Positions 3,804 to 41,550 of a DNA stretch of 41,550 nt are shown here, piece after piece (the first letter of the stretch is position 1; each line of letters opens with the position of its first letter). Under the pieces are notes generated by a model. It worked only from the letters and a program-made list of their open reading frames with translations, did no database searches and was not told the DNA's origin. The DNA is taken from IMG/VR virus record IMGVR_UViG_3300034236_000021; one strand, given 5' to 3'. This stretch comes from a virus. The position numbers were made by a program, and so were the translations under genes.

Positions 3804-3820
3804 TGCCTAATCCTCTTCTG

Positions 3821-4721: not shown

Positions 4722-5033
4722 CTAACCTTGCTTGTATGTGGCTTGTAATCCCTCTAAGTACTCCTTCTCGCTAACTAAGTTCTCCTTGGTCATTTGGTTG
4801 GCTAATACTGTTCGGAGGTGTTCTTCAGGCTGGGTAGACACATCACTCGGTATGGATTCGAGCGAGTCGTAAAATGCTATGCGGGCTTCAAAGTGAGCGA
4901 TTAGATCAGTAATCATCGGCATGCCAGCCAAAGCTTTAGCCTTCTCTTCGGACTCCTCGTCCTTCCGGTCTTCGGGTAGCTCTGGCTTGTAGTAAGTACC
5001 GCCATCATTGGGGTAGAGGTTCTCGTCTTGCAT
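4722..5033 (-). CDS. Hypothetical acidic protein (103 aa) between portal and scaffold
   Basis: ORF with a 1-nt overlap to the portal stop. No recognised domain. Confidence 0.55.
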   Translation of the reverse strand: MQDENLYPNDGGTYYKPELPEDRKDEESEEKAKALAGMPMITDLIAHFEARIAFYDSLESIPSDVSTQPEEHLRTVLANQMTKENLVSEKEYLEGLQATYKQG

Positions 5034-6952
5034 TACGCTGGCCCTATCGCATTAATGATTTGCTCTTCAGGAAGATCAGCTGCCAGCATTTGCATGGCCT
5101 GCTGGATGCGTGCCTCGTCATATCCAAGAGCCTGAAGCTCTTGGATAAAGGCTGCGTCCTCTGGGTCTATCTGTGGTTGCTGAGGCATTTGCTCCATGGG
5201 GGGCTGGGACTGTTGGGCGGCCATCTGCTCCTGTTGTGCTGCCTGGGCCTGCATTTGTTGCTGTTGCTGGGCTGCTTGAGCTTCAGCCTGGGCTTGCTGC
5301 TCCGCTTCCATTTGGTCTAGCTCTTCATCGGACAGGGACATGTCTTCGGGGTCTTCAACGCCGGAAGCGGCGACTATCCTGTTCCATGCACCAACGATCT
5401 TTCGTTGCGGGATGATTCCCTGTAGCACGGTAGATTTCTCAAGCCGAGTTAGTAGACCGTCCAGAGCTTCTAGCTGTACGGAGTTGTCCTTCATGCGAGA
5501 AGAGCTAGCGTCTACTTCAAACTTCAGCTTCTGAGTTTCTGTATCAAAGTCGATGCGTACCTTGTTGTCATCGCTTACTGCACCAGGGTTAAGTTCGCGT
5601 ACCTTAGAGGCGGTGGCTTTGTCCAACTGGATTTCCTGTATGCCGGTGCGTTCAGCAAAGTAAAGATTTATAGCCGTCTCAGACCATCGCTCCTTAAAGG
5701 TGGCGTACTGTTTGCTAACAAAGTTGTCATCAACTGATACGTTCTGAGCGAGTTGCTTCACGCCTGAGTCAGTCTTAGAAAATCCAGGGTTGCCTATTTC
5801 TGAGCTGATAGAGGTATCAGGGCTGGAGGCTAAGTTGAGTAACTGAGATTTCATCAGCCCGTAGTTGGCGGCGAACTGAGCAAGTGCGTTGGTGTCACGC
5901 TTTAGTACTTCCCATGAGTTGCCCGGATTAGTACCTAGATCAATAAGGGCGTTTGGTATGAGCTTGGCCTGTGACTTGTTCCAGGTGCCACGCTTAATAG
6001 TCGGAGGCTGGAGACCTAAGGCTTTCTCGAACTGGTACATCTGTAGCTCAGCGTCCATGAGGTTCTGCATAGGTGCGAGTTGCTCAGCAAGTCCCCAGCC
6101 TAATGGGTTAGAGCCGTCTGTATCGGAGTACATGGATATAAGCGGGATGTCACCCCGAGGGTCTTTGTTCTTTTTTGTACGGACAATCTTTTTAGTCTTG
6201 GGATGAAAGGAGAAGAACTCAGAGCCTACACCGCGCTGGAAACAGTGCATGATCTCTACGCCACTAGCTTGGTAGTCCCTAGCTTTCTCGCTCGGGGCTT
6301 GGTCTTCGGAGTTCTTGGCAGTGATTTCTTTCTTGATAGATTCAAGAGCGCTCAAGTCCCACTCTGATACGTACTTCTCTTTACGCTCGGTGGCTTTTTT
6401 CTCCAGCCGTTTCTCACGCTGAATAAGACCTTCTATATCCGAGGTCTGCCACCATGAGCGCATAAAGACGTAGTTCGATGCTAAGTCGGAGTTCTTGCCT
6501 GGCTGATAGAGAACGTCCTTAATGAAGGGGATGGTCATGTCAGGGCCAAAGTAATCACCTCTGAACACAAGCGGTACATATGCCGGTTGTGACCCAAAGG
6601 TGAGTGCTTTCTTTACGACCAACCAATCCTTCTGCAGGAGCGCGAAATCTTCGTTACAGTTCGGTAGGATGATGTTGGTCAAACAAAAACCAGCGACTAA
6701 GGAAAGCCAATCATCGGCGTCGCTGGTTATAGTCCCGCTAGGGAGCTGTTGAATTATTCTCCGAGGAGTTTTGTTGATGATAGCAGAGGTGCTACCGTCA
6801 GTGACTTTAGGGTATGACTTATCCGTGTTGGGATGAGGCTTGTTACGGGCAATCCGGTCGTACTCATCCAGCGGCTCGAACAAAGGAGCCATGTACGCAG
6901 AGCTATCTCGAAGAGCATCGAAAACGTCTTTTTCGTCGAGTTGTGCGGCCAA
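5033..6952 (-). CDS. Portal protein (639 aa) with Gln-rich C-terminal tract and UBA-like end
   Basis: Size and position downstream of terL. The first possible start is TTG at 6952, with an in-frame TGA 10 codons upstream. The C-terminus is AEQQAQAEAQAAQQQQQMQAQAAQQEQ... then LQALGYDEARIQQAMQML. Confidence 0.8.
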   Translation of the reverse strand: MAAQLDEKDVFDALRDSSAYMAPLFEPLDEYDRIARNKPHPNTDKSYPKVTDGSTSAIINKTPRRIIQQLPSGTITSDADDWLSLVAGFCLTNIILPNCNEDFALLQKDWLVVKKALTFGSQPAYVPLVFRGDYFGPDMTIPFIKDVLYQPGKNSDLASNYVFMRSWWQTSDIEGLIQREKRLEKKATERKEKYVSEWDLSALESIKKEITAKNSEDQAPSEKARDYQASGVEIMHCFQRGVGSEFFSFHPKTKKIVRTKKNKDPRGDIPLISMYSDTDGSNPLGWGLAEQLAPMQNLMDAELQMYQFEKALGLQPPTIKRGTWNKSQAKLIPNALIDLGTNPGNSWEVLKRDTNALAQFAANYGLMKSQLLNLASSPDTSISSEIGNPGFSKTDSGVKQLAQNVSVDDNFVSKQYATFKERWSETAINLYFAERTGIQEIQLDKATASKVRELNPGAVSDDNKVRIDFDTETQKLKFEVDASSSRMKDNSVQLEALDGLLTRLEKSTVLQGIIPQRKIVGAWNRIVAASGVEDPEDMSLSDEELDQMEAEQQAQAEAQAAQQQQQMQAQAAQQEQMAAQQSQPPMEQMPQQPQIDPEDAAFIQELQALGYDEARIQQAMQMLAADLPEEQIINAIGPA

Positions 6953-7050
6953 GAGGGAGCCTAGCTGGACAGCACGGGGTGGTCAGTTCGACCAGTGGTC
7001 TGCGATTGCTATTCAGCTACACTGCTAATCTGAGTGGATAATACCATATT
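6953..7050 (-). promoter_or_regulatory. Promoter plus conserved ~80-nt leader, copy A (upstream of portal)
   Basis: Minus strand carries TGgTATTAT (extended -10, 7046-7038). The 5' box TCAGATTAGCAGTGTAGCTGAAT and the 3' box GTGCTgtCCAGCTAGGCtCCCTC-TTG are shared with 30970-31068. Confidence 0.65.
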
Positions 7051-7067
7051 TCTAGCAGAATTAGAAG

Positions 7068-7395: not shown

Positions 7396-8733
7396 CTACC
7401 TCCATAAGCTTTGTATGTTACCTGTTGATGCGTCTTCGTCTTCCTCGACTGGAGCAACAAAATTCATAAGGGCATAGCGCAGCATGTCGTAGTCGTGATC
7501 ATCAGCCTTGGTGTCCACATCATCTACCCTAATCTTGTCGTACGGGAGCGAAGGTAGGGTACGGATTATGCTGGTGCACGTGCTAAAGATCTGGAGCTTT
7601 GGTAACCCATCTTTGGCGATACTCAGGTGGTCATGCACCACGGCCAGCCCAGCTTTGCGGTCGTTATTTGCTGGCATCCAAGTAACTTGTTCGTCAATGA
7701 ACATCTGAGCTATGGATTTACCTGTGTTATGGTCGCCTTGCCCGTTCCATATGGCAGGGTCAGCTAGCCCATAATGAATGTCTTCGCCCGCGTCAAATTG
7801 TTTAACTAGCTTGGACTTGCTTGGTATATCTACAAACTCTTCGGTTCGGTACTCACGGTACATGTAGATGCGCTCCGACATAGGGTCTTGAGCAAACCAC
7901 CCGATGCTGTTTTTGTTCCCATAGTCCATCGCCCTCCAACGCTGCCAGTGCTTGGGGATAGCGAACGGGTCGATAACATGCACATCTCTGCGGAACTCCT
8001 TGAACACCTGCCCTGCGAATACATCCCAGTCCCCGTCACGTAGCGCCCGTCTTAACTGGGGGTCGCTAATAGCGGCAAGCTTTCGGGAATAATCCTCTTT
8101 AAACTTCTGGTTAGGATGGTCGTCTACCTTAGCCGGGATAAACACACGGGTCACTGCCTGCCCTCCATCAAGGTTTACTATGTTTATATGTTCAGCAGGT
8201 ACGGGGTCAATAAAACGGGATTTAACCCAGCCATGGCCTATACCCCCAGGGTTTGTACCAGCGATAAACATTACCGGCCAGTCCGGGTTGCTCGTACGGT
8301 TACGAGTCAGCAGATACTCTATCCAAGCCTGCGGGAATTGTGTAAGCTCATCTACACCTATAACCGGCATTTCTGAACCCTGGTAGCGATAGATGTCATT
8401 ATCGTTGTCTAGGTAGTTGAGAATGAGGCTAGAGCCATTAGTCAATATGAACTTACGGTCTTGCCCGTGCCACGTCATGTGTCCGGCTCTAATGTATGCG
8501 CCAAACTGTTTGTTGATCTCAGGTATGATAGTGGCCTTCAGCTCTGGAATAGTGCGCCTAAATAGATTGATGGGTATGCCAGGATGTTCTAAGGCTATAG
8601 TGCCGCTCTCAGCAACTATAGCAGCAGTCTTGCCACCACCTGCTGCCCCGCCGTATAACTTCTCGTCTGCGACAGTAGTGTGAAAAACGGTCTGCCGATC
8701 AGAAGCCGTATAATCGGGCACCTTAATCTGCAT
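7396..8733 (-). CDS. terL: Terminase large subunit (445 aa)
   Basis: Walker A LYGGAAGGGKT. Walker B-like VIGVDELTQF. C-terminal nuclease-type acidic motifs (AMDYG, DDHDYDMLRYAL). Confidence 0.92.
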   Translation of the reverse strand: MQIKVPDYTASDRQTVFHTTVADEKLYGGAAGGGKTAAIVAESGTIALEHPGIPINLFRRTIPELKATIIPEINKQFGAYIRAGHMTWHGQDRKFILTNGSSLILNYLDNDNDIYRYQGSEMPVIGVDELTQFPQAWIEYLLTRNRTSNPDWPVMFIAGTNPGGIGHGWVKSRFIDPVPAEHINIVNLDGGQAVTRVFIPAKVDDHPNQKFKEDYSRKLAAISDPQLRRALRDGDWDVFAGQVFKEFRRDVHVIDPFAIPKHWQRWRAMDYGNKNSIGWFAQDPMSERIYMYREYRTEEFVDIPSKSKLVKQFDAGEDIHYGLADPAIWNGQGDHNTGKSIAQMFIDEQVTWMPANNDRKAGLAVVHDHLSIAKDGLPKLQIFSTCTSIIRTLPSLPYDKIRVDDVDTKADDHDYDMLRYALMNFVAPVEEDEDASTGNIQSLWR

Positions 8734-8742
8734 ATGTGCTGC

Positions 8743-9165
8743 TCACTTTGTATTCTTCGGTCTTGGCACATCGTTAATAAACGCTACGTTGCCAGTAAGC
8801 TTCTGGTCTACTTCACTCTTCTCTATATACCCATGCTTGCCGCTTAGAATTAGCTTGGCTATGGTAGGGTTGTATCTGTTAACGAGGCTATTTTGTATAA
8901 GTTTATAAGCTTGCTTTGACCGTAAATTACTAACGATGTAGGAAAACTGAAGGTGTAGTTCCACGTCTTCAGCGTTATTGTCAGTAGCTTCCGGTACCTT
9001 TTCCCAGTCGTACACAGTGTCCCTGCTGATGTTCAGCTCTAAGGCTAATCCTTCAATTGTTGGTAGCAGAGTTGCTGTCGACACATCAAACTCATCGACG
9101 TGCCTGGCTGCGGCATCTATTAGGGCCTGGCTTAGCTTGGTTGGCCTACCTCCTGCGTGCGCCAC
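8743..9165 (-). CDS. terS: Terminase small subunit (140 aa)
   Basis: N-terminal HTH-like GGRPTKLSQALIDAAARHV. Lies directly upstream of terL. GTG start with AAGGAGG. Confidence 0.75.
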   Translation of the reverse strand: MAHAGGRPTKLSQALIDAAARHVDEFDVSTATLLPTIEGLALELNISRDTVYDWEKVPEATDNNAEDVELHLQFSYIVSNLRSKQAYKLIQNSLVNRYNPTIAKLILSGKHGYIEKSEVDQKLTGNVAFINDVPRPKNTK

Positions 9166-17411: not shown

Positions 17412-17783
17412 TTACCAGTCCTCTGGTTTGATCACGTTGCCTGGAACCTCCCCAGAAAAGTGATTAACCCTATGTACGGCTATATCTAACAGTTCTTTGA
17501 TCTCTCGCTCTTCATATCCAGCAATGCCACAGCCTATTTTGGTTAACAGGAAAGTGAGCTCTGGGTGCCTCTTGGCATAGATCAAGAAATCCTCAAGGTT
17601 ACTCGTCAGCTCAAAGATGCCGCTCATAGTGTCTATGGCATAGCATTGACCAGTCCTACCGCTGCCTACACCCCATTCAGCTCCGAATGATTCATAGGCC
17701 TGCTTAGCTGCTCCTCCCGCATGGTGGCCAGACTTATTGCTTCCAAACACAAATATTTCATTTTTCTCTAGGCTATCTATCAT
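17412..17783 (-). CDS. SLOG/A1S_2505-like phage non-structural protein (123 aa)
   Basis: Motif IFVFGSNKSGHHAGGAAKQA...FGAEWGVGSGRTGQCYAI. 1-nt overlap with the upstream pentapeptide gene. Family call is from memory. Confidence 0.55.
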   Translation of the reverse strand: MIDSLEKNEIFVFGSNKSGHHAGGAAKQAYESFGAEWGVGSGRTGQCYAIDTMSGIFELTSNLEDFLIYAKRHPELTFLLTKIGCGIAGYEEREIKELLDIAVHRVNHFSGEVPGNVIKPEDW

Positions 17784-18481
17784 CAGTATTTTTCTGCCTC
17801 AAGCCGAGTAATAAAGAAGTGAATCCCTGAGGAGCATTCATCTGTCCAATCCGGGTCAAATGGTTCTATGGGCTTAACTGTTTCTCCCTTACGGTATACA
17901 AAGTTTGAATCGTGACTACTGACCGCTTCAGTAGCACCATAGATCTGCATGACTTTTGCATATTCAGCCCGGCACTTACGACCGAAAGCATGTGACCGCT
18001 TGGCCCTTGCAGGAATTTGAAGTTTTACGATTACGCCGTTTTGGCATTTTTTCCAACCGGTGATGGTGCCCTCAGGAAGAATGCGAGTCATAGCTATGGC
18101 GTAGTCGGCGTCCTTGGCCCCGCGTAGGTCGGCCCCGCGTAGGCTGGCCTCGCGTAGGTTGGCCCCGCGTAGGTCGGCCCCGGATAGGTCGGCCCCGTAT
18201 AGGCTGGCCCCGTATAGGTCGGCCCCGGATAGGTTGGCCCCGCGTAGGTCGGCCCCGCGTAGGCTGGCCTCGCGTAGGTTGGCCCCGCGTAGGTCGGCCC
18301 CGGATAGGTCGGCCCCGTATAGGCTGGCCTCGCGTAGGTCGGCCCCGCGTAGGCTGGCCCCGGATAGGTCGGCCCCGGATAGGTCGGCCTCGTAAACCGC
18401 GTCCTTAATCGTTTCTGCTTTTTCGCTTTCAAACAGAACGGAGCCCCAGATAGACTTGATTTGTATTTTTACTTTACCCAT
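17783..18481 (-). CDS. Pentapeptide-repeat protein with a distinct C-terminal domain (232 aa)
   Basis: About 20 consecutive A(D/N)L(S/R/Y)GA units, followed by a ~100-aa non-repeat domain ending [16 protein letters not shown]. Confidence 0.85.
18114..18329. repeat. 15-nt periodic tract with a 96-nt exact tandem duplication (18114-18209 = 18234-18329)
   Basis: Rows 18121-18180 and 18241-18300 are letter-identical. This is the coding repeat of the pentapeptide gene. Confidence 0.9.
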
Positions 18482-21204: not shown

Positions 21205-21340
21205 CCAGCTTTCTCCTAACTGTTTTGACTGATTTACCCCAGTCATAGGTCTCTCACTTGGACAGCTACCTAATGCCATACTCTGTATGGATTTTGTTTC
21301 GGTTAACTGTCCGGGGTTGTAATCACCATGACTACAGCCC

Positions 21341-21375
21341 CAAATTAATAACCGACGCTTGTCTTCGCGTCGGTT
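21341..21375 (-). terminator. Hairpin/terminator downstream of the recombinase gene
   Basis: Minus strand reads AACCGACGC-GAAGACAA-GCGTCGGTT followed by ATTAATTT. Confidence 0.5.
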
Positions 21376-21516
21376 AGTCTGTTAGGATTAACAGATGATG
21401 AATTTTTGTAATTGTGCCTTCTACATGAAGGGCGCTATTACAAACGTTCAGTAACCGGGCGAAACATTTGTTGTGAACTTTAAGGTTCTAGAAGTTATTC
21501 TAGCAAATCTTATCGC

Positions 21517-22365
21517 TTATGTCAATACGCTTATGTGGTGCTGGTTAAACGCGTCCTGCAAATCTTGGTTTTCAACGTGCGTGTATATCTGGGTTGTGCT
21601 GATAAAGGCATGGCCCAGGATTAACTGGATATGTCTCATATTAGCACCATTATGCAATAAGTCAGTTGCCCCGCTATGCCGTAGCATGTGTGTGTACACT
21701 CGACGCTCTATGCCTGCTCGGCTTGCATTTCTTTTTACTACCCCATTTATTCCGCCCCTGGAGTAACGGACTTTCTTGGTGCTCAGGAATAGGGCCGGAG
21801 ATTCATCTTTCCTGCTGGCTAAGTACTCCGCTAACAAGATTCGTGTGTCTTTGTCTATAAAGACAGTCCGTGAGCGGGCATATTTGCCAAAACGTATGTA
21901 CACGAGATTATCACTTACGTCCGTTCGATTCAGGGAGGAAAGCTCCTTGGAACGTATACATGTATTAAATATGAAAGATAGCAACAATCGTTCCCGCAGA
22001 ATCGGGGCAGCTGCTATTAGGTCAACAATTTCACTATGCTTTAGATACTGAGGAAGAGCCTGGGGTAATCGAGGTAGGAATATCTCTGTCGTGTCGAATT
22101 TGGTATAGCCTTTTTTATTGGCATACTCCAGTATATTTTTGACCTTAGAAAGATAGAGTCTTACCGTTGCCGGGGCTTTATCTTTCGCCATATCGTTTCG
22201 CCATAAGGCAATATCAACCGGCGTCAGGCTTTTTATGTCGACGTTCCCGCGGCTACATACAAGTGCCTTTACGGCGTCACGGTAGCTTTGCTCAGAGCTA
22301 TCGGTTAAGCCGCGGACTTGTATGTAGTTGACTCTGAAATCTTCCAGGGCTTGTAATATTGTCAT
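21517..22365 (-). CDS. int: Tyrosine recombinase, XerC/D-like small integrase (282 aa)
   Basis: CIRSKEL (box I Arg), HMLRHSGATDLL and LGHAFISTTQIYTHV (H-R-H...Y). N-terminal SAM-like core-binding domain. No arm-binding domain is evident. Confidence 0.9.
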   Translation of the reverse strand: MTILQALEDFRVNYIQVRGLTDSSEQSYRDAVKALVCSRGNVDIKSLTPVDIALWRNDMAKDKAPATVRLYLSKVKNILEYANKKGYTKFDTTEIFLPRLPQALPQYLKHSEIVDLIAAAPILRERLLLSFIFNTCIRSKELSSLNRTDVSDNLVYIRFGKYARSRTVFIDKDTRILLAEYLASRKDESPALFLSTKKVRYSRGGINGVVKRNASRAGIERRVYTHMLRHSGATDLLHNGANMRHIQLILGHAFISTTQIYTHVENQDLQDAFNQHHISVLT

Positions 22366-22464: not shown

Positions 22465-23233
22465 AAATTATGTTAATGTTACTAACTTCTACGTATAACG
22501 TGTGTATTTTTGGGCATGTTTAAAAGCCTGCTTTTTGTTTAACCCCTAGGGTACAGGCAACCTCACACTAGCACTGGCTCCGTAATGGGGTTTATTCCAG
22601 TCACTAGACCTTCATACTCCAACTGTAACCATGCGAAAGACCGAAATATAACAAATTGCAGCTTCTAGCAGATCATCAGACCCATAGAGAGATAAACAGT
22701 TTGTAACTATTCAGTGTTTGTTAAGCAGCGAGGTGCCTTTGATTTAATACCCTCAAAGTTCTAACTTTGCATACCCTCATTGTTAGATTGACGCATTACG
22801 TCACCAGCCCGTATAACATCCGCCATACGGGAAGCGGGGGAGAGTTTGTGAGTCAGGCTTTTTAAAGTCGGCCCTTCGGGTGCTATGTCATCGTTTCAGA
22901 GACAGCTCTCAAACCCTTTGCCACGACTACTGAAAGGCCACCAACGAATTGATGACCAAAAACCAGATAATTACATATTTGTGATACAAGTGCTCCATTA
23001 AGCAGCCTGTCCTACCGATGGCTTGACACACCGGCGGGACAGCGCTGGCAGCTGGGGTATGGGCCCTCATAGTTTATGCTCTGTTACGGAGATCCCAGGT
23101 TTGCTACCAGCTAACACAGCAAGTGTTCTTTACTCAGTCCGTACATTTAATTACGGCCCTCTCTTACTGCGCTGTTACGCTGCTCAACTTGCTATATATG
23201 GCGTACAGGCCAGCAACAAGTGCTGGACACTGA

Positions 23234-23425: not shown

Positions 23426-23479
23426 ACATGTCTCCTTATTACTGACATGCACGCCATATATAGCTTTCTATGTGAGTGT

Positions 23480-23518: not shown

Positions 23519-23776
23519 TTACACCTTGTTACTAATGTACCAACACCAAAAGCTGTTGAGGCTTATGTCGTAGTACCCGTAGCCATCATAAGCAGGACTT
23601 TTCTGTGCTGCCAGGTTGCCAGACATGGACCTATCGTCTTCAAGGTCTTTCAACGCTTCCATTCGCATGCGGCTAAATTCTTCCTCTCTCTCAGCCCGTT
23701 TCTTGGTGAAGGCCAAAAACTCGAGCCAGTTTTCCTCGATGATATTTTGGCAGATTGGCATTAGTCCCTCGTGCAT
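23519..23776 (-). CDS. Hypothetical protein (85 aa)
   Basis: AAGGAGacaacATG. Charged helical centre and aromatic C-terminus. Confidence 0.6.
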   Translation of the reverse strand: MHEGLMPICQNIIEENWLEFLAFTKKRAEREEEFSRMRMEALKDLEDDRSMSGNLAAQKSPAYDGYGYYDISLNSFWCWYISNKV

Positions 23777-24143: not shown

Positions 24144-24168
24144 GCAAAAAGCCCCAAGCATTGGGGCT
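24144..24168 (-). terminator. Intrinsic terminator (minus strand)
   Basis: AGCCCCA-atgct-TGGGGCT followed by TTTTTGCG on the minus strand. Confidence 0.6.
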
Positions 24169-24221
24169 GTAGTCATGGTGATTAGATTTAATATACCAAA
24201 TTAACCGATTTTAGGCAAACG

Positions 24222-30280: not shown

Positions 30281-30969
30281 ACATAGCCCGCCATGCTGTC
30301 ATCGATGGTGTGCCCAAGAGGATTCCAGGGGCTGAGTATGGTTATAGACTGCGAATCATTGTCTTCGCGCATCCGCTCCATGCGGTCGTTGGCCTCAGCA
30401 ATAAGATCAGCTCGCAAGTCTTGGCGAGTTACATCATTACGGACGTAATCAGCGGCCACTACATATACGAGCCAGTCTGGGTCATCTACGGTAAGGTCAT
30501 CGGTCGCGCCTGTCAGAACTTCTGGGAACAGGTACACAGGGAGATAGATTGTGCCGCCGAACTGTGGGCTAGACGAATTGAACGCATTATTAAACCGGAT
30601 GGTCCGGCCTATCCTCGCCGCATAGTTTCCTGTATCCATGTTCCGTAGCCGGTTGGCGTCAACAATTGTGTAATCTGACCAAACAGTGGTGCTACCTGAG
30701 TGCGTAATGCGGATAACATCAGACTCTTGTTGGCTGATTTTCCGTATTTCATCATCTAGGTCAAATGTCTGGGCAGCAGTAACAGTGCCTGCGCTATATG
30801 CAGGGTCGTATAGTGAGTTCCAATCGATTCCAGGGGTACGCGCCCAGACCCTTTGGTACCGGTTTCCGGCAGCTAAAAGGTTATTCCATTTCGTAGAGCC
30901 AACAGCAAAAGTAGGTATTTTACCAGTGGCAGCTTGGAATGCGTCAGAGATGAACTCTTCGACGGTCAA
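30277..30969 (-). CDS. Tail adaptor / tail tubular A-like protein (230 aa)
   Basis: Position upstream of the 663-aa protein. The only possible start is TTG 30969 (in-frame TGA 14 codons upstream, no other start codon). Function inferred from synteny only. Confidence 0.5.
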   Translation of the reverse strand: MTVEEFISDAFQAATGKIPTFAVGSTKWNNLLAAGNRYQRVWARTPGIDWNSLYDPAYSAGTVTAAQTFDLDDEIRKISQQESDVIRITHSGSTTVWSDYTIVDANRLRNMDTGNYAARIGRTIRFNNAFNSSSPQFGGTIYLPVYLFPEVLTGATDDLTVDDPDWLVYVVAADYVRNDVTRQDLRADLIAEANDRMERMREDNDSQSITILSPWNPLGHTIDDSMAGYV

Positions 30970-31068
30970 GAGGGTGCCTAGCTGATAGCACGAAGGTTGA
31001 GCAGTGGCTCAAGCGTTCTGCACTCGTGTATTCAGCTACGCTGCTAATCTGACTGGATTATACCATTT
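30970..31068 (-). promoter_or_regulatory. Promoter plus conserved ~80-nt leader, copy B
   Basis: Minus strand carries TGgTATAAT (31065-31057) immediately after the 1345-aa gene stop. The 5' box TCAGATTAGCAGCGTAGCTGAAT and 3' box GTGCTatCAGCTAGGCaCCCTC-TTG are shared with copy A. Confidence 0.7.
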
Positions 31069-31069
31069 G

Positions 31070-34000
31070 TCAGGAGACTTTGCGACTGGTTTGTACGAGC
31101 TTAGCCCTACGTAGTTTCGGTGTCCTTACACTAGCTGTAAACTTGGGTATGGACGGACGGGAAGCCTTAATAGTAGACTGACGCGCGCGCCCTATGGTTG
31201 GGGTCTTTAGGGCTAGGCCAATAGCTTTGGCGCTCCTGGCCTTAGCCTGACCCTCACCTTTAGCTTTAGGTTTTATTGATACGTTCCCGTACTTATCTCG
31301 AAGCTTGCTCTTTTCCTGTAGGCCTGCCTTAGTTAAGGCGTCGTCATAGTCGAGCAAACGCCCTACGAGGTCAGTATCATTACCCTTACTTTCTAGGTAC
31401 TTAGATATTTCTGATTTATTCATCTCATAGAGATCACGCACGTTCTTGTCGTACTTTGAGCCAACTTCCAGCTTTTGTAATTTTCTTTTTCTTGTGATGT
31501 CTTTGACCTCTGTAATCTTGCCCTCAGATTTGTCTTGGTCATACTTGTCTTTTGCGGCTATATACTCTGCCTCGGGTGAGGAGTAGAACTCAGTCTCTTT
31601 TTGTTCCTCGGTCTGTGTATAAGACTTTGGATTGAACTTGCCCTGAGCAAGCTGTTTTTGCCCAAACGAAAGTTTCTTTTCTTCGCCTTCATATCCTGGT
31701 GCATATTGACCAACCTGGTTCTCAGCAGCGTACTTAGCCTTCTCTACCGCCAGAATATCTTTTGAGAGGTTAGCCAGTGCTTTCTTTTGTTCTTCATCGC
31801 CTAGAGCTTTATATTCAGGTGTAGCTACTAGACTCTTCCATCCTGCTCCAACTTGCTGCCCCACCTGATCTTGTAGCGCCTTTAACTGGGGCTTTTCTAG
31901 CTTCGTGTCTTTTCCGAAGGTGTCTGACTTGATCTGTGAAGGGATAGCACCCATGTCCACATCCTTAAGCGCACGTAGCTCCTGTGAAACTGCGTCACCT
32001 TCCCGGACAAGACTCGGCTTAAAGGGGTTAACGTACTGGTTTAAGAAGTTATCTTTAGCGGGTAATGGTTGGCCAAACAGATCAGTCTTTGGTGCGGTCT
32101 GACCACGCAGCCCAGGCACCCCAGATTTGATACCTTCAATAATGCCCTCAGGCTTTCTTTGAATCTCATCAGCAGCGCGTGCAGCCGAACGTACAAAGTT
32201 GGGGGTAAGAGAAGACGTACTATTCTCTACAAACTTCTTAGCGGTACCGTCGGGGTCATTAATTGCGTCTAGTACACCACTAATACCTTTCAAGAAGGAT
32301 TGCTCTTGCATGGCCTGCGCTGCGGTCGCAATCGCGCTGAAAGTCTTGTCTGTCGTGCCCTTACCTTCTTGGCCACTATCGTGTATGTCGCCGCCAATAG
32401 CCAGGAGCATACCAAACGGCTGTAGGTAGTTCAGGGAATACCAGCGGTTGCCTACTCGAACAGAGTACGGTTGTTTGCCTTCCGCTTCCCATAGCTTGCG
32501 TTCTTTTTCGTCACGAGGATAACCGAATGTCATGTCTCCCGCTTTAGCTAGAGCAAGCCCTGCGCCAATAGCTACAACTCCAAACGTACCGTTGCCTATC
32601 GCCTGTGACATGGCCCTTTGATCGAACGGCTCACCAGCTTTCACAGCTTTAATCTGCGTAACCATCTCCTTGGCAATCCCGACTGGGGTACGTTCTACAA
32701 GACGTGTGGCTATCGCGGACGGCACTTGAGTAAACGGTATTACAAAGTCTACTACTGGCTTGGCTGGGCCCGCGCTTCTCTTAAGCCCACTCGCCATATT
32801 GCCTAATATTGTTTTGTTCTTAAACGTAGCGTAATCGGATTCCTTTGTCGCGCGCTCCAGCGCCTGGGTTGGCGGGTTAGCCATAAACTTTTGTACAAAT
32901 GAACTCCTGGCGTTACCCTTAAGCCCCCGGTTAGTAGCCTCAGCCTTAGCGATGCTACTAAGCGCTTCTTTCTGGGCCGAGGTGCTAAACGGTGCATCCG
33001 CCGTCCCCATGAGGCGGTAGACGCCGTTAACGTATCCCCCGAGTGCTTTGCCAAATGGGCTGTTACCATAGCTCAGATCAGCCTTCTGTTCGTATTTCTG
33101 CCCGTTGTTACGAGGGTCATAGCCTGTCTTTATATAGTCAGGGAGTGTCTTGGCGCCTTCCTTAAAGCCGGAACCGGCAGCACCCGGTAGTGCTAGCGTC
33201 TGAGTTCGTTTCCCAGTAGCAAGGCTCATTAACATATCTGCTCCAGTGGCCACAGGGTTAACAAACCCCTTTCGCACCAGTGCCTCACCCGTGTTACCAA
33301 GCAAGTTACCAGCGGTAGTTGTTGGGGCGGTTAGTAGCCCAGCTCGCCAGAAGTTTATAATGCGGTCGCCTGCCCCGGACGGGATGTTATCGTTTACCAG
33401 TTTCTGTACTTCGAACACCGCCCGCTGTTTATCAGTGGCGGTCTTTGTCTTGGCTATGAGAGCATTAAGCTGTGTCTGTAGTTCAGGCGTTACTTTTACT
33501 CCTGCCTGATTCAGTTGCTTAGTAGCCCAGTAGCGAAGCCCCTCGGGAGTACGGCGAGATAAGATAGCCGCAGCTTGGACAGTTTGACCGGCGGCCGTCA
33601 GGTGTTCGCTTAGGCGCTCATACAGCTCGGTGGCTTTCTGCAAACTAGCTGGGTCGGCTTTGGCGTCAAGGATTGCAGCGAGTGATTGGGTATCGGCCAC
33701 ATCTTGACTGCTAATCTTGCCGCTTGGCGCTTCTAATCGAGTGCGGACGTCTATCTCGAACGTGTCCTCGCCCTGAGCCTTTAGTCGTCCTAGGGAGTCT
33801 GTATATCGAGCTCTTTCGGTTTGCACATCGTATTGTGGGGCACCTGCCTTAACGTCTCGGCGCACCTGCTCACTTACAAATTCACTTTCAGGTACAGTTT
33901 TCCCAGCATAACGGGAAGTCTTCTGTTTGCTTACAGGGTCAAACGTTGCCACAGCTTGATTGGGTGGGAGGCTCATGTCTCCAGCTGGAGCAGTAAGCGT

Positions 34001-36299: not shown

Positions 36300-36323
36300 T
36301 AGAGAAGTTTTAGGATTTGGCTA
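36300..36323. repeat. 24-bp perfect inverted repeat, left arm (tagagaagttttaggatttggcta)
   Basis: Exact reverse complement of 37257-37280. The inner 3 nt are the TAG stop of the CAP gene. Confidence 0.95.
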
Positions 36324-36899: not shown

Positions 36900-37259
36900 A
36901 TGAGCGTACTTGGAAAAATAGTGGGAGGCCTCTTCCTCCTATTCGTGGCATTTTGCATCGGCGCTACTGTCGGTGATACGACAGCCAGGAACGAGCTAAC
37001 GCAAAAGAATACCGAGGCAAGCGCTCAGCTCAACCAGGCTATTGCCGAACGTGACAAGTCGTTAGCGGAGCTACGAGGAGTTCACGAAGACCTTATTGCG
37101 AAATGGAACCAGCAACAGAATGACATTGGCGCGGGAAAGTATACCCGTACACAGTATGTGCAATCGCCTAATTACTCGAGCATATTCCCTAAAACTACTA
37201 GATGCGAAACGCGAGACTCTTACTACACGAACGGTGGCTTTACTACCACATGCCAATAG
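36900..37259 (+). CDS. Membrane-anchored coiled-coil protein (119 aa)
   Basis: N-terminal TM IVGGLFLLFVAFCIGATV, coiled-coil middle, C-terminus with 2 Cys. Plus strand with its own promoter. Confidence 0.7.
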   Translation: MSVLGKIVGGLFLLFVAFCIGATVGDTTARNELTQKNTEASAQLNQAIAERDKSLAELRGVHEDLIAKWNQQQNDIGAGKYTRTQYVQSPNYSSIFPKTTRCETRDSYYTNGGFTTTCQ

Positions 37260-37280
37260 CCAAATCCTAAAACTTCTCTA
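37257..37280. repeat. 24-bp perfect inverted repeat, right arm (tagccaaatcctaaaacttctcta)
   Basis: Exact reverse complement of 36300-36323. The first 3 nt are the TAG stop of 36900..37259. Confidence 0.95.
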
Positions 37281-37318
37281 ATTGTTAAGATACTATTTTC
37301 TAAATAGCACCTCATGTG

Positions 37319-37430
37319 TCGTGACCCGTTGGTTACTGGCCTGTGCGAACCACGCCTGTATGCGTTAACGTTCTCTTGCACTTGGAACTATACTTAGCTC
37401 GTTCGTGACTCGTTGGTTTAAGAGCCTGTG
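37319..37430. repeat. Imperfect direct repeat tcgtgac[c/t]cgttggtt-n4/5-gcctgtg (37319-45 and 37403-30)
   Basis: 15/16 and 7/7 matches with an 84-nt period. Related tcgtggcccgt at 37750-60 and ttcgtgact at 37812-20. Confidence 0.7.
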
Positions 37431-37494
37431 TCGCGGTACATTGTATTGCCTAAGGCGTACGGCGAGCTGTGATAGTCTGATTATATCACTATTT

Positions 37495-37514
37495 AAAAAA
37501 GCCCCTTAGGGCTT
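37495..37514 (-). terminator. Intrinsic terminator (minus strand)
   Basis: Minus strand reads AAGCCC-TAAG-GGGCTT-TTTT. Confidence 0.65.
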
Positions 37515-37620
37515 TCATACTAGAGTGTCAGTTAATGGGGTGAGTGTGCCACGTAAGACAAAACCGCTTATGTTATCCACAGATATAGCTTCCACATTCT
37601 TGTTAGTAACAACATTGGGG

Positions 37621-37650
37621 TTGACCCAATCCGTTGAACGCATGTAATAT
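37621..37650 (+). promoter_or_regulatory. Promoter TTGACC-18-TAATAT for the plus-strand sRNA
   Basis: ttgacc at 37621-26 and taatat at 37645-50. The predicted +1 (~37657) coincides with the first base of the 5' hairpin. Confidence 0.6.
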
Positions 37651-37656
37651 ATGAAT

Positions 37657-37750
37657 GCAAGCACGCGCTTGTTAGCACCCCCACCAAGTGTGCTTGCACA
37701 TTATCCTTCGTAGCGAGAAAGATTTAACCGGCTGATATGGCCGGTTTTTT
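37657..37750 (+). ncRNA. Candidate sRNA (~94 nt): 5' hairpin with C-rich loop, single-stranded ACAUUAUCCUUCGUAGCGA, intrinsic terminator
   Basis: Stem gcaagcac (37657-64) / gtgcttgc (37690-97) with loop uuagcacccccac. Terminator AACCGGC-tgatatg-GCCGGTT-TTTT (37726-50). Contains no ATG. Confidence 0.6.
37698..37716. repeat. 19-nt perfect direct repeat, copy 1 (acattatccttcgtagcga)
   Basis: Identical to 37847-37865. The flanking bases differ on both sides. Confidence 0.95.
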
Positions 37751-37779
37751 CGTGGCCCGTGAAGGTATGAAATCGTAAG

Positions 37780-37921
37780 CATAAGAAAAGACCGGCAAGA
37801 TGCCGGTCTACTTCGTGACTTCGAGCTACCCCAATGTAGATCAATAACATTATCCTTCGTAGCGATACGTCGGTAGGGCGGTATACTCTCAAAACCCTCT
37901 TGGCAAGGCCTTGCCGCGATT
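37780..37921 (-). ncRNA. Candidate sRNA (~140 nt) convergent with the plus-strand sRNA; carries UCGCUACGAAGGAUAAUGU
   Basis: Predicted +1 ~37921. 5' palindromic hairpin GGCAAGGCCTTGCC. Terminator GACCGGCA-tct-TGCCGGTC-TTTTCTT (37808-37780). The terminator lies inside the 74-aa track ORF, which argues against that ORF. Confidence 0.55.
37847..37865. repeat. 19-nt perfect direct repeat, copy 2
   Basis: Identical to 37698-37716. Confidence 0.95.
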
Positions 37922-37927
37922 GCATTT

Positions 37928-37957
37928 AGTATAATCCCATACCTTTCAGTCTGTCAA
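37928..37957 (-). promoter_or_regulatory. Promoter TTGACA-18-TATACT for the minus-strand sRNA
   Basis: Reverse complement of 37952-57 (TTGACA) and 37928-33 (TATACT), just downstream of the fibre gene stop. Confidence 0.6.
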
Positions 37958-37969
37958 CAACGGTGCTGC

Positions 37970-39760
37970 TTATCTAGTCAAAGCCCGTCCATTACCAAAC
38001 GCTACACACTGGTAGTCTAGGTGTATTAGGTCAGTAGCCACAACACCTGAGTTAGTAGTATTGATAGCAGCTCCAGTTTCCCTACCGGTAGCGGTTGGGA
38101 TATTAGTCGTAAGAGTGTCTGTCCACAGTAAGGTGCCACTATCGTTAAATATTTCAAAAGTAATGCTGGTAGCTCCAGCGTTTACTGTTACTCGTGATCG
38201 ATACCACGTAGCTACCGTCAGCGTATAAGTTGTGCCAGTACTGCTACGGGTATTAGCAGTCGCAGTTTTGCCGGTAGCCACACCAGCCGAGTCTATTTCA
38301 ATATAGGCACCATCGGCCGCGTCAGCGCTACTTGAAGTATCGAGAAAGCCCATACGAGTAGTAGTGGCAGTAAAAACTTCTGGCATCCAGATACATTCAA
38401 AGACTTCACCGCCTCCTAATAGTATTTGGGCGGTGTTAAGAGCTACAGTATAGCCGGAATTGGTTGTTGTTGAGCTACGGAGCCTCACTTGTCCCGGATG
38501 AGAGGCAGTTACACGGCCAGCATTGGGTGCATTTATCGTACCTGATGCTATGGCGATACCCGAGAATGGGTCAATCATGTTTGAAGAGCTAAGCCCTGCA
38601 AAGTCTGAGTAGTAAATAGGCTTTTTACGTATAGCATCCATCATCGCGTAGCCGTAATCTATATAGGCCGAGACATTATTAGGAGTAGACGAATCTTTTT
38701 GCCACTTTACGTTTTGCCCGCCAGCAGGAGCAGCAACTACGGAATCACTTAGATTGGCGTCAGTCGCGGCAACACCGTTGACGCTGACACTGTCTCCAGA
38801 GCCGCCTGAAGGCGTAGACCAAGTACCGTCACCGCGTAGGTAGGTACTAGAACTTGGTGTACCAGTCGCACTTATTCCAGTACTAACTGGCAGGCCTGTA
38901 GCGTTGGTTAAGACTGCTGCACTAGGCGTTCCAAGTGCAGGAGTAACTAATGTTGGCGATGTTCCGCGTACTATGGAACCGGTGCCAGTTGTCGTATTTC
39001 CTAGTAGGGTTACATTTGGATCATAAGCCTGTACGTCAGTCCCGATTACAAGCCCCAAGTTCGTACGAGCGCCCGCCGCGGTACTAGCCCCAGTGCCACC
39101 ATCAGCCACTGCCACGTCAGTACCACCCGGAGCATATTTTCCATCCAGGGTTGCCTGCAAGCCAGTAACTGTACTGATTGCCTGAGCGCCCGTGTGGTTA
39201 GTCCGATTCTTTAGGTTCGCGTCAGTGTCGTTAGCCGTTGCACCAGTAGCAATGCCCGCAACTTTAGTTTTCTCCGTAGCTGTATAGGCTTTGTTAGTCG
39301 TTCCGTCTGGCACTGCATCTTGGTTAAGCGCCTGCATTGTCTTATCGCCCCGGTAATATTGAGATGACGTTCCTGCGGCAATGGTAGTCTCTTTTGTGTC
39401 CAACTGGCTCTTATTCACAGCGTCAGCGGCGTTCGTACCATTGGCTAGACTAGTGACCTTATTCCCATTAACGTCTACTCCGGCTGCTTCAGTAATGGTA
39501 GCCACAGTTGTGCCAGCGCTATTCTTCAACCGTATACCAGCTCCTGCGCTCCGAAGGTCCGTATGGTCTGATGTGGATACATTCAGTATATCTGGGTTGT
39601 TACCAATGCTATCCGTTCCCTTTATGGGTATGTTATGCGGCATGTAGAACGATGTATAGCCTTGGACGCTACCCCCAGCGATGCTATCAAGAAATGCACT
39701 TTGGTTTTGTTTGCCGACCAATTCAGCAGCTAGGTCGGATTCTTGTATATGTGTTCCCAT
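37970..39760 (-). CDS. Tail fibre / receptor-binding protein (596 aa) with lectin-like C-terminal domain
   Basis: NKVTSLANGTNAADAVNKSQLD and TNHTGAQAISTVTGLQATLDGK fibre motifs. C-terminal ~200 aa is beta-rich and jelly-roll/LamG-like by composition. TAATG overlap with the GH81 stop. Confidence 0.75.
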   Translation of the reverse strand: MGTHIQESDLAAELVGKQNQSAFLDSIAGGSVQGYTSFYMPHNIPIKGTDSIGNNPDILNVSTSDHTDLRSAGAGIRLKNSAGTTVATITEAAGVDVNGNKVTSLANGTNAADAVNKSQLDTKETTIAAGTSSQYYRGDKTMQALNQDAVPDGTTNKAYTATEKTKVAGIATGATANDTDANLKNRTNHTGAQAISTVTGLQATLDGKYAPGGTDVAVADGGTGASTAAGARTNLGLVIGTDVQAYDPNVTLLGNTTTGTGSIVRGTSPTLVTPALGTPSAAVLTNATGLPVSTGISATGTPSSSTYLRGDGTWSTPSGGSGDSVSVNGVAATDANLSDSVVAAPAGGQNVKWQKDSSTPNNVSAYIDYGYAMMDAIRKKPIYYSDFAGLSSSNMIDPFSGIAIASGTINAPNAGRVTASHPGQVRLRSSTTTNSGYTVALNTAQILLGGGEVFECIWMPEVFTATTTRMGFLDTSSSADAADGAYIEIDSAGVATGKTATANTRSSTGTTYTLTVATWYRSRVTVNAGATSITFEIFNDSGTLLWTDTLTTNIPTATGRETGAAINTTNSGVVATDLIHLDYQCVAFGNGRALTR

Positions 39761-41550
39761 TATCTTGTAGCTATCCAGTGAAGCAAGTTAGTTAATGTTG
39801 CACCATTATCAAAGGTGGTGAGCGCATTCGCCTCAGTCCATGCAGCTGCTGGGTCGAGTACCGCCTTAGCGGAGTTCATAACCCCTTGCCAGGCATCAGT
39901 CATTTCTATATGGAGAGTGCCTGTTGCACCCGTACCTCCTCCACCGACGACAGTGATGGTATCGCCGTCAACATAACCACTCCCCGTCCACTCATACGCT
40001 GAGCCTATCTTTGGAGTTATAGAAGTGACAGCACCTCCCGATACAGCAATAGTGACGAGAAGGCCTGTACCGCTACCCCCAGTTGTTGCTAGGCTGCTTC
40101 CTGCGGTATAGCCTGAGCCACCCGTGAGCTTGGTTATCCGGTAAGGCGTACTACGGCTATCGATACGTGACATAACGGCCGGGTACTCATCCGCAACCCA
40201 GTCAGCCTCCAAGAAAAGTTCTGATATCGGTACGCAAGGGAGCATCTGGATTCCATGTATATACTCTTCCTGGGTTCCGAAGAAGGTGTTGTAGTCCATC
40301 TTAAAGTCGAACAAGATACCCACTGAGCCTTGCTGTTTGAAGTTCTCGGGCCAGATCGGTGAGTCAAGCTTAACGTGGTAGTAGCGCCGGACCGAGTGCA
40401 GTTCGGTGGCAGTCAGTAGTTGTCCGGTTGCAGCCATGTAGTCGCTGCCGCTCGCCAGTCCCCATAGTGTCAGTGCATAGTAGGCATTGATTGATTCACT
40501 GGAAGATTCTTGGTTCTTTGAGCTACTAGCTGCGCTTAAGCCATGGGCCCACGAATGGCCGTGGTACCAGTCTTTGTGACGGAATAGTGGGAAGCTGGTT
40601 TCACTTGGGTATGGGTTAGCTATATCTTTAGCTAGAACATTTACTTTTGTTTGGTAGCTAGCTAGGAACGCTGCGTCAGTCTTAGCAAGTATGGCGGCTG
40701 CGTAGAGCATGTATCCGTAGTGGAAGTGATGATCATTGTATATGCCATTGCCGAAGTCACCACCCGTAGATGTTGAGCCGTTTGTGGAGATGATGCCCCC
40801 GAAAGTCGTGTCATACAGTAGCTTATTTGTGTTAGTAGCGTCTAGCCAGGCTACAAGGCTTGGCTTGAACTTTGTACGAGCACTGGCCGCTAGAGTAGTC
40901 TCACCAAGTTCATCAGCTATTTGGGCTAGGCGGGCCCACTTCGCTAAGTACTTCCCACCGTAGTAGGGGTCAGCCTGCGCGGTAGTGGTACTGAATGTTG
41001 CACCAATGTCAGCGGTTAGCGCTGTCGTAATGGCTGCTATGCGGGTAGGGTCAATAGCATTCGGCGGCTTAAACCCAAATGTTGGGAGCACTTCACGCAT
41101 CGTCCATGAGGTGCCGCTTATCCCAGTCGTATCACCTTTAAGCACGTTATAGGTAATACCGGCTAGTGTTGGGTCCTGTATACCATCCATGTGATGGGGC
41201 AGTACGTGTGTCAGAAGCGTACCGCTTCCACTTGTCGTGTAAGTGAATACGATTGTACCCACGTTGTTATTTACGGTAAGAGTGAGATCAGCCCCAGTAA
41301 CGTATATGCCATGGGCAGCATCAAGTACGGCCTCATCTTCAGGCACGGATATAATGGCAGCCTGCAAAATTCCGGTGAAGGTGCTAGTAGCCACCAGCGC
41401 AGCAGTTGCGTGAGTGGATATGGTGATAACTGAGCTGGAGTAGATTACCCATGTCTGGCCATTACTCAGCACAATCTTAAACTTGTCACCTGTTGCACTT
41501 GAGCCTGGTGTTAGCCCATTAATAGTGACGATGCTCCCGGTGTGGGTGAT
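39760..41550 (-). CDS. GH81 endo-beta-1,3-glucanase, C-terminal 596 codons of the junction-spanning gene
   Basis: GH81 signature blocks YNDHHFHYGYMLYAAAILAK, FRHKDWYHGHSWAHGL, NQESSSESINAYYALTLWG and YIHGIQMLP. The frame stays open upstream of the track start at 41472, through 41550 and into 128-550. Confidence 0.88.
   Translation of the reverse strand: MTHTGSIVTINGLTPGSSATGDKFKIVLSNGQTWVIYSSSVITISTHATAALVATSTFTGILQAAIISVPEDEAVLDAAHGIYVTGADLTLTVNNNVGTIVFTYTTSGSGTLLTHVLPHHMDGIQDPTLAGITYNVLKGDTTGISGTSWTMREVLPTFGFKPPNAIDPTRIAAITTALTADIGATFSTTTAQADPYYGGKYLAKWARLAQIADELGETTLAASARTKFKPSLVAWLDATNTNKLLYDTTFGGIISTNGSTSTGGDFGNGIYNDHHFHYGYMLYAAAILAKTDAAFLASYQTKVNVLAKDIANPYPSETSFPLFRHKDWYHGHSWAHGLSAASSSKNQESSSESINAYYALTLWGLASGSDYMAATGQLLTATELHSVRRYYHVKLDSPIWPENFKQQGSVGILFDFKMDYNTFFGTQEEYIHGIQMLPCVPISELFLEADWVADEYPAVMSRIDSRSTPYRITKLTGGSGYTAGSSLATTGGSGTGLLVTIAVSGGAVTSITPKIGSAYEWTGSGYVDGDTITVVGGGGTGATGTLHIEMTDAWQGVMNSAKAVLDPAAAWTEANALTTFDNGATLTNLLHWIATR
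41424..41550. repeat. Terminal exact overlap, copy 2 (identical to 1-127)
   Basis: Same 127-nt string as 1-127. An ORF reads through it in frame, so it is the same locus written twice. Confidence 0.97.

Follow-up and report, generated by a model that had tools for sequence, protein, structure and literature searches.

Does a pair of converging transcription units in a phage genome, joined by a short perfect repeat, encode two small RNAs that act on each other, and if so, what kind of system do they form? The units lie at positions 37621-37957 of IMG/VR record IMGVR_UViG_3300034236_000021, a viral DNA of 41,550 nucleotides (nt) that was analysed whole and is called the window below. Our preferred answer, held tentatively at a probability of about 0.45, is that these units encode an antisense or sponge RNA pair which resembles the par toxin-antitoxin (TA) locus of plasmid pAD1 but lacks a toxin, and which the phage carries as a moron. 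What we demonstrate is the repeat itself, the signals for transcription, the energetics of folding and duplex formation, the location in a cargo slot and the lack of support for coding.

The sequence ACATTATCCTTCGTAGCGA is present twice on the plus strand, in direct orientation, with 100% identity, the copies being 149 base pairs (bp) apart. Both copies (boxes) lie exactly where a preliminary description of this DNA, made from the sequence alone, had placed them (37698-37716 and 37847-37865). When up to three mismatches were allowed, the sequence matched the window only at these two sites, and 100 shuffles gave no match. Similarity between the copies ends abruptly, with none just outside the 19 nt. 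The box exists in just two copies, lacks dyad symmetry and shares no motif with the arms of the 24-nt inverted repeats found elsewhere in the genome. Over 37260-37970 (711 nt) the window is matched at 100% identity by 13 contigs from assemblies of other samples (JGI, ENA and Logan); as these come from three independent assembly pipelines, the repeat is not an assembly artefact. The population is thus clonal across the 13 contigs, which therefore hold no evolutionary information. The two boxes bracket both convergent intrinsic terminators, and each is downstream of a sigma-70-like promoter. Because the direct repeat is read in opposite senses, the two predicted RNAs are perfectly complementary over 19 nt. 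The components of the locus are as follows.

37621-37650, plus strand: plus-unit promoter, TTGACC-18-TAATAT, a 9/12 sigma-70-like match
37657-37752, plus strand: predicted plus RNA, about 96 nt
37657-37697, plus strand: 5' stem-loop of the plus RNA, with a 10-bp stem (37657-37666 / 37688-37697) in both the minimum free energy and the centroid structures
37678-37682, plus strand: CCCCC run in the loop of this hairpin
37698-37716, plus strand: box copy 1, ACATTATCCTTCGTAGCGA, plus-RNA form ACAUUAUCCUUCGUAGCGA, predicted to be mostly single-stranded
37726-37752, plus strand: plus-unit intrinsic terminator, AACCGGCTGATATGGCCGGTT (stem 37726-37746) followed by TTTTTT
37809-37781, minus strand: minus-unit intrinsic terminator, AGACCGGCATCTTGCCGGTCT (stem 37809-37789) followed by TTTCTTAT
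37847-37865: box copy 2, minus-strand RNA form UCGCUACGAAGGAUAAUGU, the exact complement of the plus-RNA box
37902-37915, minus strand: palindrome GGCAAGGCCTTGCC near the 5' end of the minus RNA, found by inverted-repeat search and in the fold
37921-37781, minus strand: predicted minus RNA, about 140 nt
37957-37928, minus strand: minus-unit promoter, TTGACA-18-TATACT, an 11/12 sigma-70-like match

The promoters, the terminators and the convergent, non-overlapping layout were recovered as the preliminary description had given them. Only two 11/12 promoter matches exist genome-wide, namely the minus-unit promoter and a site at 21525-21497. The plus-unit promoter draws its support from its position, with the predicted +1 (~37657) coinciding with the base of the 5' hairpin. 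Convergent promoters, a defining trait of par/Fst loci, are present, although the plus-unit match (9/12) is weak compared to the minus-unit match (11/12). In both units AATGCAA directly follows the -10 box. Read in the sense of their own transcripts, the terminators are near-copies of a single palindromic hairpin (ACCGGC..GCCGGU-UUUUC), a similarity equalled by 3-6 of 1000 shuffles, and since each is palindromic the terminator stems of the two RNAs are complementary to each other. Both belong to the four strongest terminator-like sites in 20-40 kb, half of the genome, and the 1.6-kb region holds eight terminator-like sites where 1.5 are expected.

The two units differ in their independence from neighbouring genes. 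The -35 box of the minus unit starts 13 nt past the stop codon of the tail-fibre gene (37970-37972) with no intervening terminator, and the minus-unit terminator, whose U-tract region reads TTTCTT, is the first one downstream of the tail-fibre operon. The minus-RNA sequence is therefore also the 3' untranslated region (UTR) of that operon. Both units had been called self-contained, which is accurate for the plus unit but not for the minus unit, as it doubles as the 3' UTR of the tail-fibre mRNA. The mRNA of a 119-amino-acid (aa) gene at 36900-37259 (plus strand) may extend this far, in which case the plus RNA would double as its distal 3' end.

The predicted plus RNA folds at -32.2 kcal/mol, significantly more stably than shuffled sequences (z = -3.4). 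An inverted repeat with perfect 9-nt arms underlies its 5' stem-loop. The hairpin at +1 with a C5 loop, as described previously, is present in this fold, but its stem has 10 bp and three inner pairs rather than the "8+4" bp reported. The plus-RNA box is mostly open, with a mean unpaired probability of 0.76 and an opening cost of 1.3 kcal/mol. Co-folding of the two predicted RNAs yielded the entire 19-bp duplex at -102.2 kcal/mol, compared to -76.5 kcal/mol for the summed monomers, a gain of ~25.7 kcal/mol that upholds the mutual complementarity first read from the DNA. The only significant partner of each predicted RNA is the other RNA of the pair.

Several results weigh against an RNA pair with a regulatory role. 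The 9/12 score of the plus promoter equals the genome background and is thus at chance level, and two terminators are expected anyway wherever convergent operons meet. The minus RNA (-44.3 kcal/mol, z = -1.8) is not significantly more stable than its shuffles, and its box is half-buried, with an opening cost of 6.4 kcal/mol. The preliminary description had suggested a target prediction; for the translation-initiation regions of the phage, pairing with the C-loop, the box or the middle of the minus RNA was no better than with shuffled controls. Exact matches of at least 11 nt to the rest of the genome numbered three (6.7 expected), and neither the 24-nt inverted-repeat "tags" nor units A and B gave significant pairing. 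A perfect repeat within a clonal population could simply be young. Finally, no diverged homologue of the locus that could reveal co-variation of the boxes was found in any collection searched. GenBank phages and IMG/VR contigs had no DNA-level resemblance to the genome, plasmids had no match to the locus, and IMG/VR had neither a match to the box nor relatives of the flanking proteins. The 19-mer had two matches in 185,579 species genomes, both with unrelated coding-like flanks (~4 expected by chance, by a rough estimate), and a 17-mer had 29 single-copy matches in metagenome contigs without any flanking similarity.

The minus-RNA box had also been likened to a ribosome-binding site with a start codon. 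The sequence GAAGGA-UA-AUG is indeed there, but the Shine-Dalgarno (SD)-like element is separated from the AUG by 2 nt, compared to 5-9 nt between the AAGGAG-type SD and the start codon of genuine phage genes, and because of this spacing the mimicry is weak. Translation from the box AUG would give an open reading frame (ORF) of 49 codons which, as already noted from the sequence, runs through both terminators; its stop is the UAA in the other box. The peptide (MLLIYIGVARSHEVDRHLAGLFLCL...) has neither a transmembrane-length hydrophobic helix nor a PXXXG motif. None of the 13 independent contigs has a gene call between the 119-aa and tail-fibre genes, the six small ORFs of the region were absent from a collection of 15 billion proteins, and neither Pfam nor PHROG returned a match for them. 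The 74-aa ORF that encloses the 49-codon box-to-box frame scores -0.16 to -0.17 per codon in codon usage, where real genes score +0.25 +/- 0.09 and decoys -0.15 +/- 0.14. It has one marginal match (E = 4e-5), to a 1217-aa protein among 1.84 billion representatives, and family membership on the strength of this single match was discounted as spurious. As gene calls, Pfam, PHROG, protein collections and codon usage are all negative, coding hypotheses for the region were rejected. The lack of coding support, of a hydrophobic segment and of a stop codon before the terminator means that a classical type I toxin is unsupported, in agreement with the preliminary description.

Another ORF of 49 codons lies close by on the minus strand, at 37664-37515, and is antisense to the promoter of the plus unit; it starts with GTG and has an internal ATG at 37643. 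Its codon usage is gene-like (+0.17 per codon) and its UGA stop abuts a strong minus-strand terminator at 37515-37497 (AAAGCCCTAAGGGGCTTTTTT). No SD, homologue or gene call was found for it.

The locus lies in a complete phage genome. The window ends are redundant over 127 nt (1-127 = 41424-41550), which indicates a circular assembly and a complete genome of 41.4 kb; an ORF at 39760-41550 continues at position 1. Nearly all genes are on the minus strand, and recognised products include a large terminase, a 1345-aa internal virion protein, a tail fibre, an amidase and a CAP-domain protein. The presence of a gene for a 282-aa tyrosine recombinase (21517-22365) suggests that this uncultured, podovirus-like phage is probably temperate. 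Its best terminase match has only 38% identity. The RNA pair occupies a variable cargo slot, with the 119-aa cargo gene on one side and the tail-fibre gene on the other.

To place this slot in a wider context, the tail fibre and the 1345-aa internal virion protein were used to recruit distant relatives of the phage. In these the genes follow one order (tail fibre, variable slot, CAP-domain gene, ~375-aa gene, ~1400-aa gene), the cargo of the slot differs in each of them (L029-L034, L068 and L069), and the box region has no counterpart. It consists of a 76-aa and a 129-aa gene in L029, of a 97-aa and a 127-aa gene in L031, and of two small membrane-protein genes with a single GC-rich terminator facing the tail-fibre gene in L069. 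Non-coding similarity to L031 is limited to ~65 nt after the small-gene stop codon and colinearity with L069 to ~240 nt (37257-37500), and neither genome has a counterpart of 37520-37960. This suggests that the RNA pair is lineage-specific cargo in a moron hot spot, and such a slot fits a module with its own promoters and terminators.

At the position equivalent to the RNA pair, L069 encodes a 54-aa protein with a transmembrane helix and a charged tail (3734-3898, minus strand) and a ~88-aa ORF with two hydrophobic segments (~3890-4157, minus strand). In the window, the stop codon of the small gene is followed by a conserved non-coding trailer of ~65 nt (37257-37320), which comprises an inverted-repeat arm, AATTGTTAAGATACTATTT and a CTATTT/AAATAG hairpin. 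It is 88% identical to L069 4382-4423 (42 nt) and is recognisable in L031 (~7830-7896, minus strand), although the adjacent genes are unrelated. Between 37300 and 37480, two units ~84 nt apart share TCGTGACYCGTTGGTT..GCCTGTG..TGTAT (0/1000 shuffles score equally). The motif TCGTGRCYCGT has three copies within 450 bp, all on the plus strand (37319, 37403 and 37750), the third of which lies between the convergent terminators. The blocks colinear with L069 (GTACA..GTATTGCCTAAGGC and CCTGTG..TTGTATGCC) are upstream of the L069 cargo promoter. These units, motifs and blocks are conserved non-coding elements.

Four other explanations of the locus were weighed against the antisense or sponge pair. 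The one that deserves most attention, while still unlikely, is that two convergent operons simply end here and that the repeat acts at the DNA level, as a scar of recombination or a cassette boundary or as a pair of protein-binding sites, with no RNA role. The stretch from the tail-fibre stop codon to the minus "promoter" holds no terminator, the plus promoter match is at chance level, the slot content varies in every relative and is visibly shuffled, and other long perfect repeats mark cassette boundaries in this genome and its relatives (the 24-nt inverted repeats at 36300/37257 and 21320/24161), all of which is what this explanation would lead one to expect. It would nevertheless leave an 11/12 promoter pointing at box 2 as a coincidence, and no known scar mechanism yields a sharp 19-nt direct repeat with copies 149 bp apart: tandem duplication repeats a whole unit, target-site duplications are shorter, and a Campbell insertion would need a 149-bp circle. 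Also against it, the box has only two copies, no dyad and no motif in common with the inverted-repeat arms, and none of the 13 assemblies contains a deletion variant. That last observation bears equally on the idea that the repeat is a substrate for deletion, programmed or accidental, whereby recombination between the boxes would remove 149 bp with both terminators and fuse the convergent units. The direct orientation of the repeats, their placement around exactly both terminators, the encoded tyrosine recombinase and the other perfect repeats of the genome speak for it; yet the deleted form was seen in 0/13 contigs, the box has no recombinase-core-like dyad and is unlike the inverted-repeat arms, and the loss would be irreversible, making this the least credible of the readings considered.

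The remaining two explanations would have ribosomes act at the minus-RNA box. In a true par/Fst-like type I TA system the minus RNA would serve as mRNA for the toxin, with translation starting at the box AUG or at an in-frame UUG two codons on, and the plus RNA would be an antitoxin masking this initiation site. Convergent promoters, a repeat over an SD-like sequence and AUG, 5' stem-loops and complementary terminator stems all fit par, TA modules are frequent in cargo slots, and L069 bears its small membrane-protein genes at the equivalent place. The frame, however, is still open at the terminator and continues for 49 codons through both terminators, and the peptide MLLIYIGVARSHEVDRHLAGLFLCL... 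has neither a helix of transmembrane length nor PXXXG. The decoy-like codon usage, the lack of Pfam, PHROG or family matches, the 2-nt SD-AUG gap and the lack of an Rfam match to Fst/par RNA point the same way, and we consider a TA system very improbable. Hardly more probable is antisense-gated, translation-coupled read-through, in which ribosomes on the box ORF would cross the minus terminator so that late transcription continues, while pairing of the plus RNA at the box would block initiation and restore termination. In pyrBI-type attenuators, translation through a terminator hairpin prevents termination. Here the box ORF stops at a UAAUG in the second box and is followed by a 9-codon ORF and then by the 49-codon ORF 37664-37515, and this chain of three would span 37850-37515 with a sole gap of 7 nt; its last member has gene-like codon usage (+0.17) and ends exactly at the strong minus terminator 37515-37497. 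Set against this, the initiation context is poor, ORFs this long are not rare by chance (~0.1 each), no pipeline calls any of them, and the CAP gene downstream seems to have its own promoter-like sequence, TTGACA-17-TATAAG, at 36861-36833.

Certain other candidates were rejected as well. A miniature inverted-repeat transposable element or target-site duplication does not fit the 130-bp interior, which is without terminal inverted repeats. The geometry is incompatible with attP, iterons, cos/pac sites or a mini-CRISPR: two copies lie 149 bp apart, without a dyad and far from the recombinase (21.5 kb) and terminase (7.4-8.7 kb) genes.

Under the favoured reading of an antisense or sponge pair, the plus RNA would be a trans-acting antisense RNA that is protected by its 5' stem-loop, exposes a 19-nt seed and ends in a Rho-independent terminator. 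The minus RNA, bearing the complement of the seed, would be made from the near-consensus promoter and would also form the 3' end of each tail-fibre operon transcript. First contact might be made through the open plus-RNA box, possibly aided by the complementary terminator stems, and the resulting 19-bp duplex would be long enough to be a plausible RNase III substrate. Mutual titration or co-degradation of the two RNAs could follow. The pair might thereby be a threshold switch that ties a lysogen-expressed RNA to the late tail-fibre transcript, or alternatively a regulator with a built-in decoy. We infer, from these features of the DNA, that the RNAs are made and pair in vivo, and likewise the direction of regulation and its physiological output.

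As the minus-RNA sequence is the 3' UTR of the tail-fibre operon, the plus RNA would also bind every late tail-fibre transcript. A narrower version, which we regard as improbable, is a protein-free par-like switch in which the direct repeat and the duplicated palindromic terminators keep two convergent non-coding RNAs complementary, so that a lysogen-expressed antisense RNA directly gates the late tail-fibre transcript through its stability or through translation-coupled read-through. If true, it would represent an RNA-only layer of late-gene or superinfection control, with type I TA architecture but no toxin. More generally, if both RNAs are made and pair, the locus would be a compact natural case of trans-antisense control of a late structural mRNA via its 3' UTR, and phages would carry regulator-plus-decoy RNA pairs as mobile cargo. 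If the favoured reading is untrue, two convergent units simply meet here within a cargo hot spot, and what is left to explain is one 19-nt repeat.

Inverted repeats also occur next to the RNA pair and around the recombinase gene. A perfect 24-nt inverted repeat, TAGCCAAATCCTAAAACTTCTCTA (read outward), has arms at 36300-36323 and 37257-37280 that flank a divergent gene pair, the CAP-domain gene (minus strand) and the 119-aa gene (plus strand), separated by divergent promoters. Each arm begins at the TAG stop codon of one of the flanked genes. L031 has perfect 21-nt arms at equivalent places (7874-7894 / 8853-8873), diverged in sequence but with the core CCTAAAA(A)CT.CTC in common, and L069 has 25-nt arms (4402-4426 / 4960-4984, 88% complementary) around the CAP gene alone. 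The arms thus co-vary across phages, while the enclosed small gene is non-homologous in L031 and absent in L069. Such a pattern suggests a cassette that can be inverted or exchanged, or else a long-range RNA stem; the contigs show no breaks at the arms, so active inversion is not indicated. These CAP-cassette repeats may be more interesting than the RNA pair.

A second perfect 24-nt inverted repeat, TTGGGGCTGTAGTCATGGTGATTA (read outward), is located at 21320-21343 and 24161-24184, 2817 nt apart. Between its arms are the gene for the 282-aa tyrosine recombinase (21517-22365) and 1.8 kb of ORF-poor DNA (22.4-24.2 kb), and the arms themselves sit in the leaders of outward-facing genes of 191 aa (minus strand) and 177 aa (plus strand). 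With the recombinase inside, the layout resembles, by analogy, that of hin and the H segment. The arm sequence is unrelated both to the CAP-cassette repeat and to the 19-nt box. The other 11/12 promoter of the genome (TTGACA-17-TAGAAT with an extended TG, 21525-21497, minus strand; 21349-21376, minus strand, belongs to the same feature) lies where the recombinase gene has its 3' end and is directed outward, across a 10-bp hairpin and the repeat arm, to the 191-aa gene, possibly as an invertible promoter or the source of a small leader RNA. Downstream of the recombinase gene, an imperfect 30-nt inverted repeat (23191-23220 / 23435-23464, 80-83% complementary, arms ~215 nt apart) surrounds a gene of ~70 aa and is also present in L032 (23330-23359 / 23577-23606).

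Some further features of the genome bear on the host or on gene expression. The 119-aa protein is an orphan in a set of 5.8 billion proteins. A transmembrane segment at its N terminus precedes a coiled-coil-like region, and its weak PHROG match to Rz-like i-spanins (E = 0.0014), which may be merely compositional, would hint at a Gram-negative (diderm) host. A 737-aa tail protein that runs off the window end bears a glycoside hydrolase 81 (beta-1,3-glucanase) domain. A pentapeptide-repeat protein with a C-terminal DUF5758 (17783-18481, minus strand) is encoded by a DNA repeat with 15-nt periodicity (18069-18443). A non-coding element of ~120 nt is duplicated at 6946-7062 and 30963-31080 (76% identity, 88% over a 43-nt core); both copies are upstream of structural-gene blocks, each block being followed by TTG-start ORF calls preceded by AGCTAGGC(T/A)CCCTC, and the element is possibly a promoter or leader specific to the phage. 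The window has no tRNA or tmRNA genes.

Among known systems, MicL and DapZ are 3'-UTR-derived small RNAs (sRNAs) with an internal promoter that act on distant mRNAs. The minus unit resembles them in having a strong promoter just past a stop codon and a terminator shared with the upstream mRNA, but they do not target a convergent neighbour through a direct repeat. The preliminary description had labelled the plus RNA a C-rich anti-SD sRNA of the Firmicutes type (RsaE/RoxS). The plus RNA shares with these sRNAs a C5 run placed in a hairpin loop and a CCUUC that is single-stranded. There is only one C-run, however, no SD-region target stood above chance, a Firmicute host is not indicated, and an Rfam search of the window at the gathering score returned no match, so this label is unsupported. 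At E <= 10 over 37200-38000, the Rfam check proposed earlier returned just two chance-level matches far under threshold, anti-hemB (14.6 bits) and IS128 (13.2 bits).

Convergent sRNA pairs between a moron coding sequence and a conserved ORF have been described in lambdoid prophages by Tree et al. 2014 (PMC4104026), and the locus shares this position as well as its likely temperate context. In the part of that report considered here, AsxR/EcOnc02 with EcOnc27, and AgvB, are Hfq-bound RNAs of 51-60 nt targeting the host core sRNAs GcvB and FnrS, their type is marked by a conserved 3' domain with homology to EcOnc01-03, and a member of the pair is proposed to be a target-mimicking "anti-sRNA" or sponge (PMC4104026). 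The RNAs predicted here are longer (96 and 140 nt) and have no sequence relationship to them. Mutual complementarity of the convergent partners is not described in that part of the report, whereas at our locus each predicted RNA has no detectable partner but the other.

The closest comparison is with par (RNA I / RNA II, Fst) of Enterococcus faecalis pAD1, the type I TA system whose defining layout is given in PMC7472228. The locus is not a member of this family on the key tests of a shared terminator, an Fst-type ORF and a model match. It has one repeat where par has two (DRa and DRb), and it lacks a hydrophobic Fst/Ldr-type ORF that closes before the terminator. In par, the complementary terminator stems come from one shared bidirectional terminator (PMC7472228), whereas here they come from two separate, near-identical terminators 33-40 nt apart, and as these are separate the RNAs of the locus do not overlap at all. 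Sequence or covariance-model similarity to par is also lacking, and a Firmicute origin of the host is not indicated. The resemblance to par that was proposed at the outset nonetheless holds at the level of layout (PMC7472228). In both systems promoters converge, DNA direct repeats read in opposite senses make the RNAs complementary, the repeat spans an SD-like sequence and start codon on the longer RNA (at our locus with the atypical 2-nt spacing), and the RNAs have 5' stem-loops and complementary terminator stem-loops. If both RNAs are made and pair, this would show that the par-type design exists outside TA biology and outside the Fst family.

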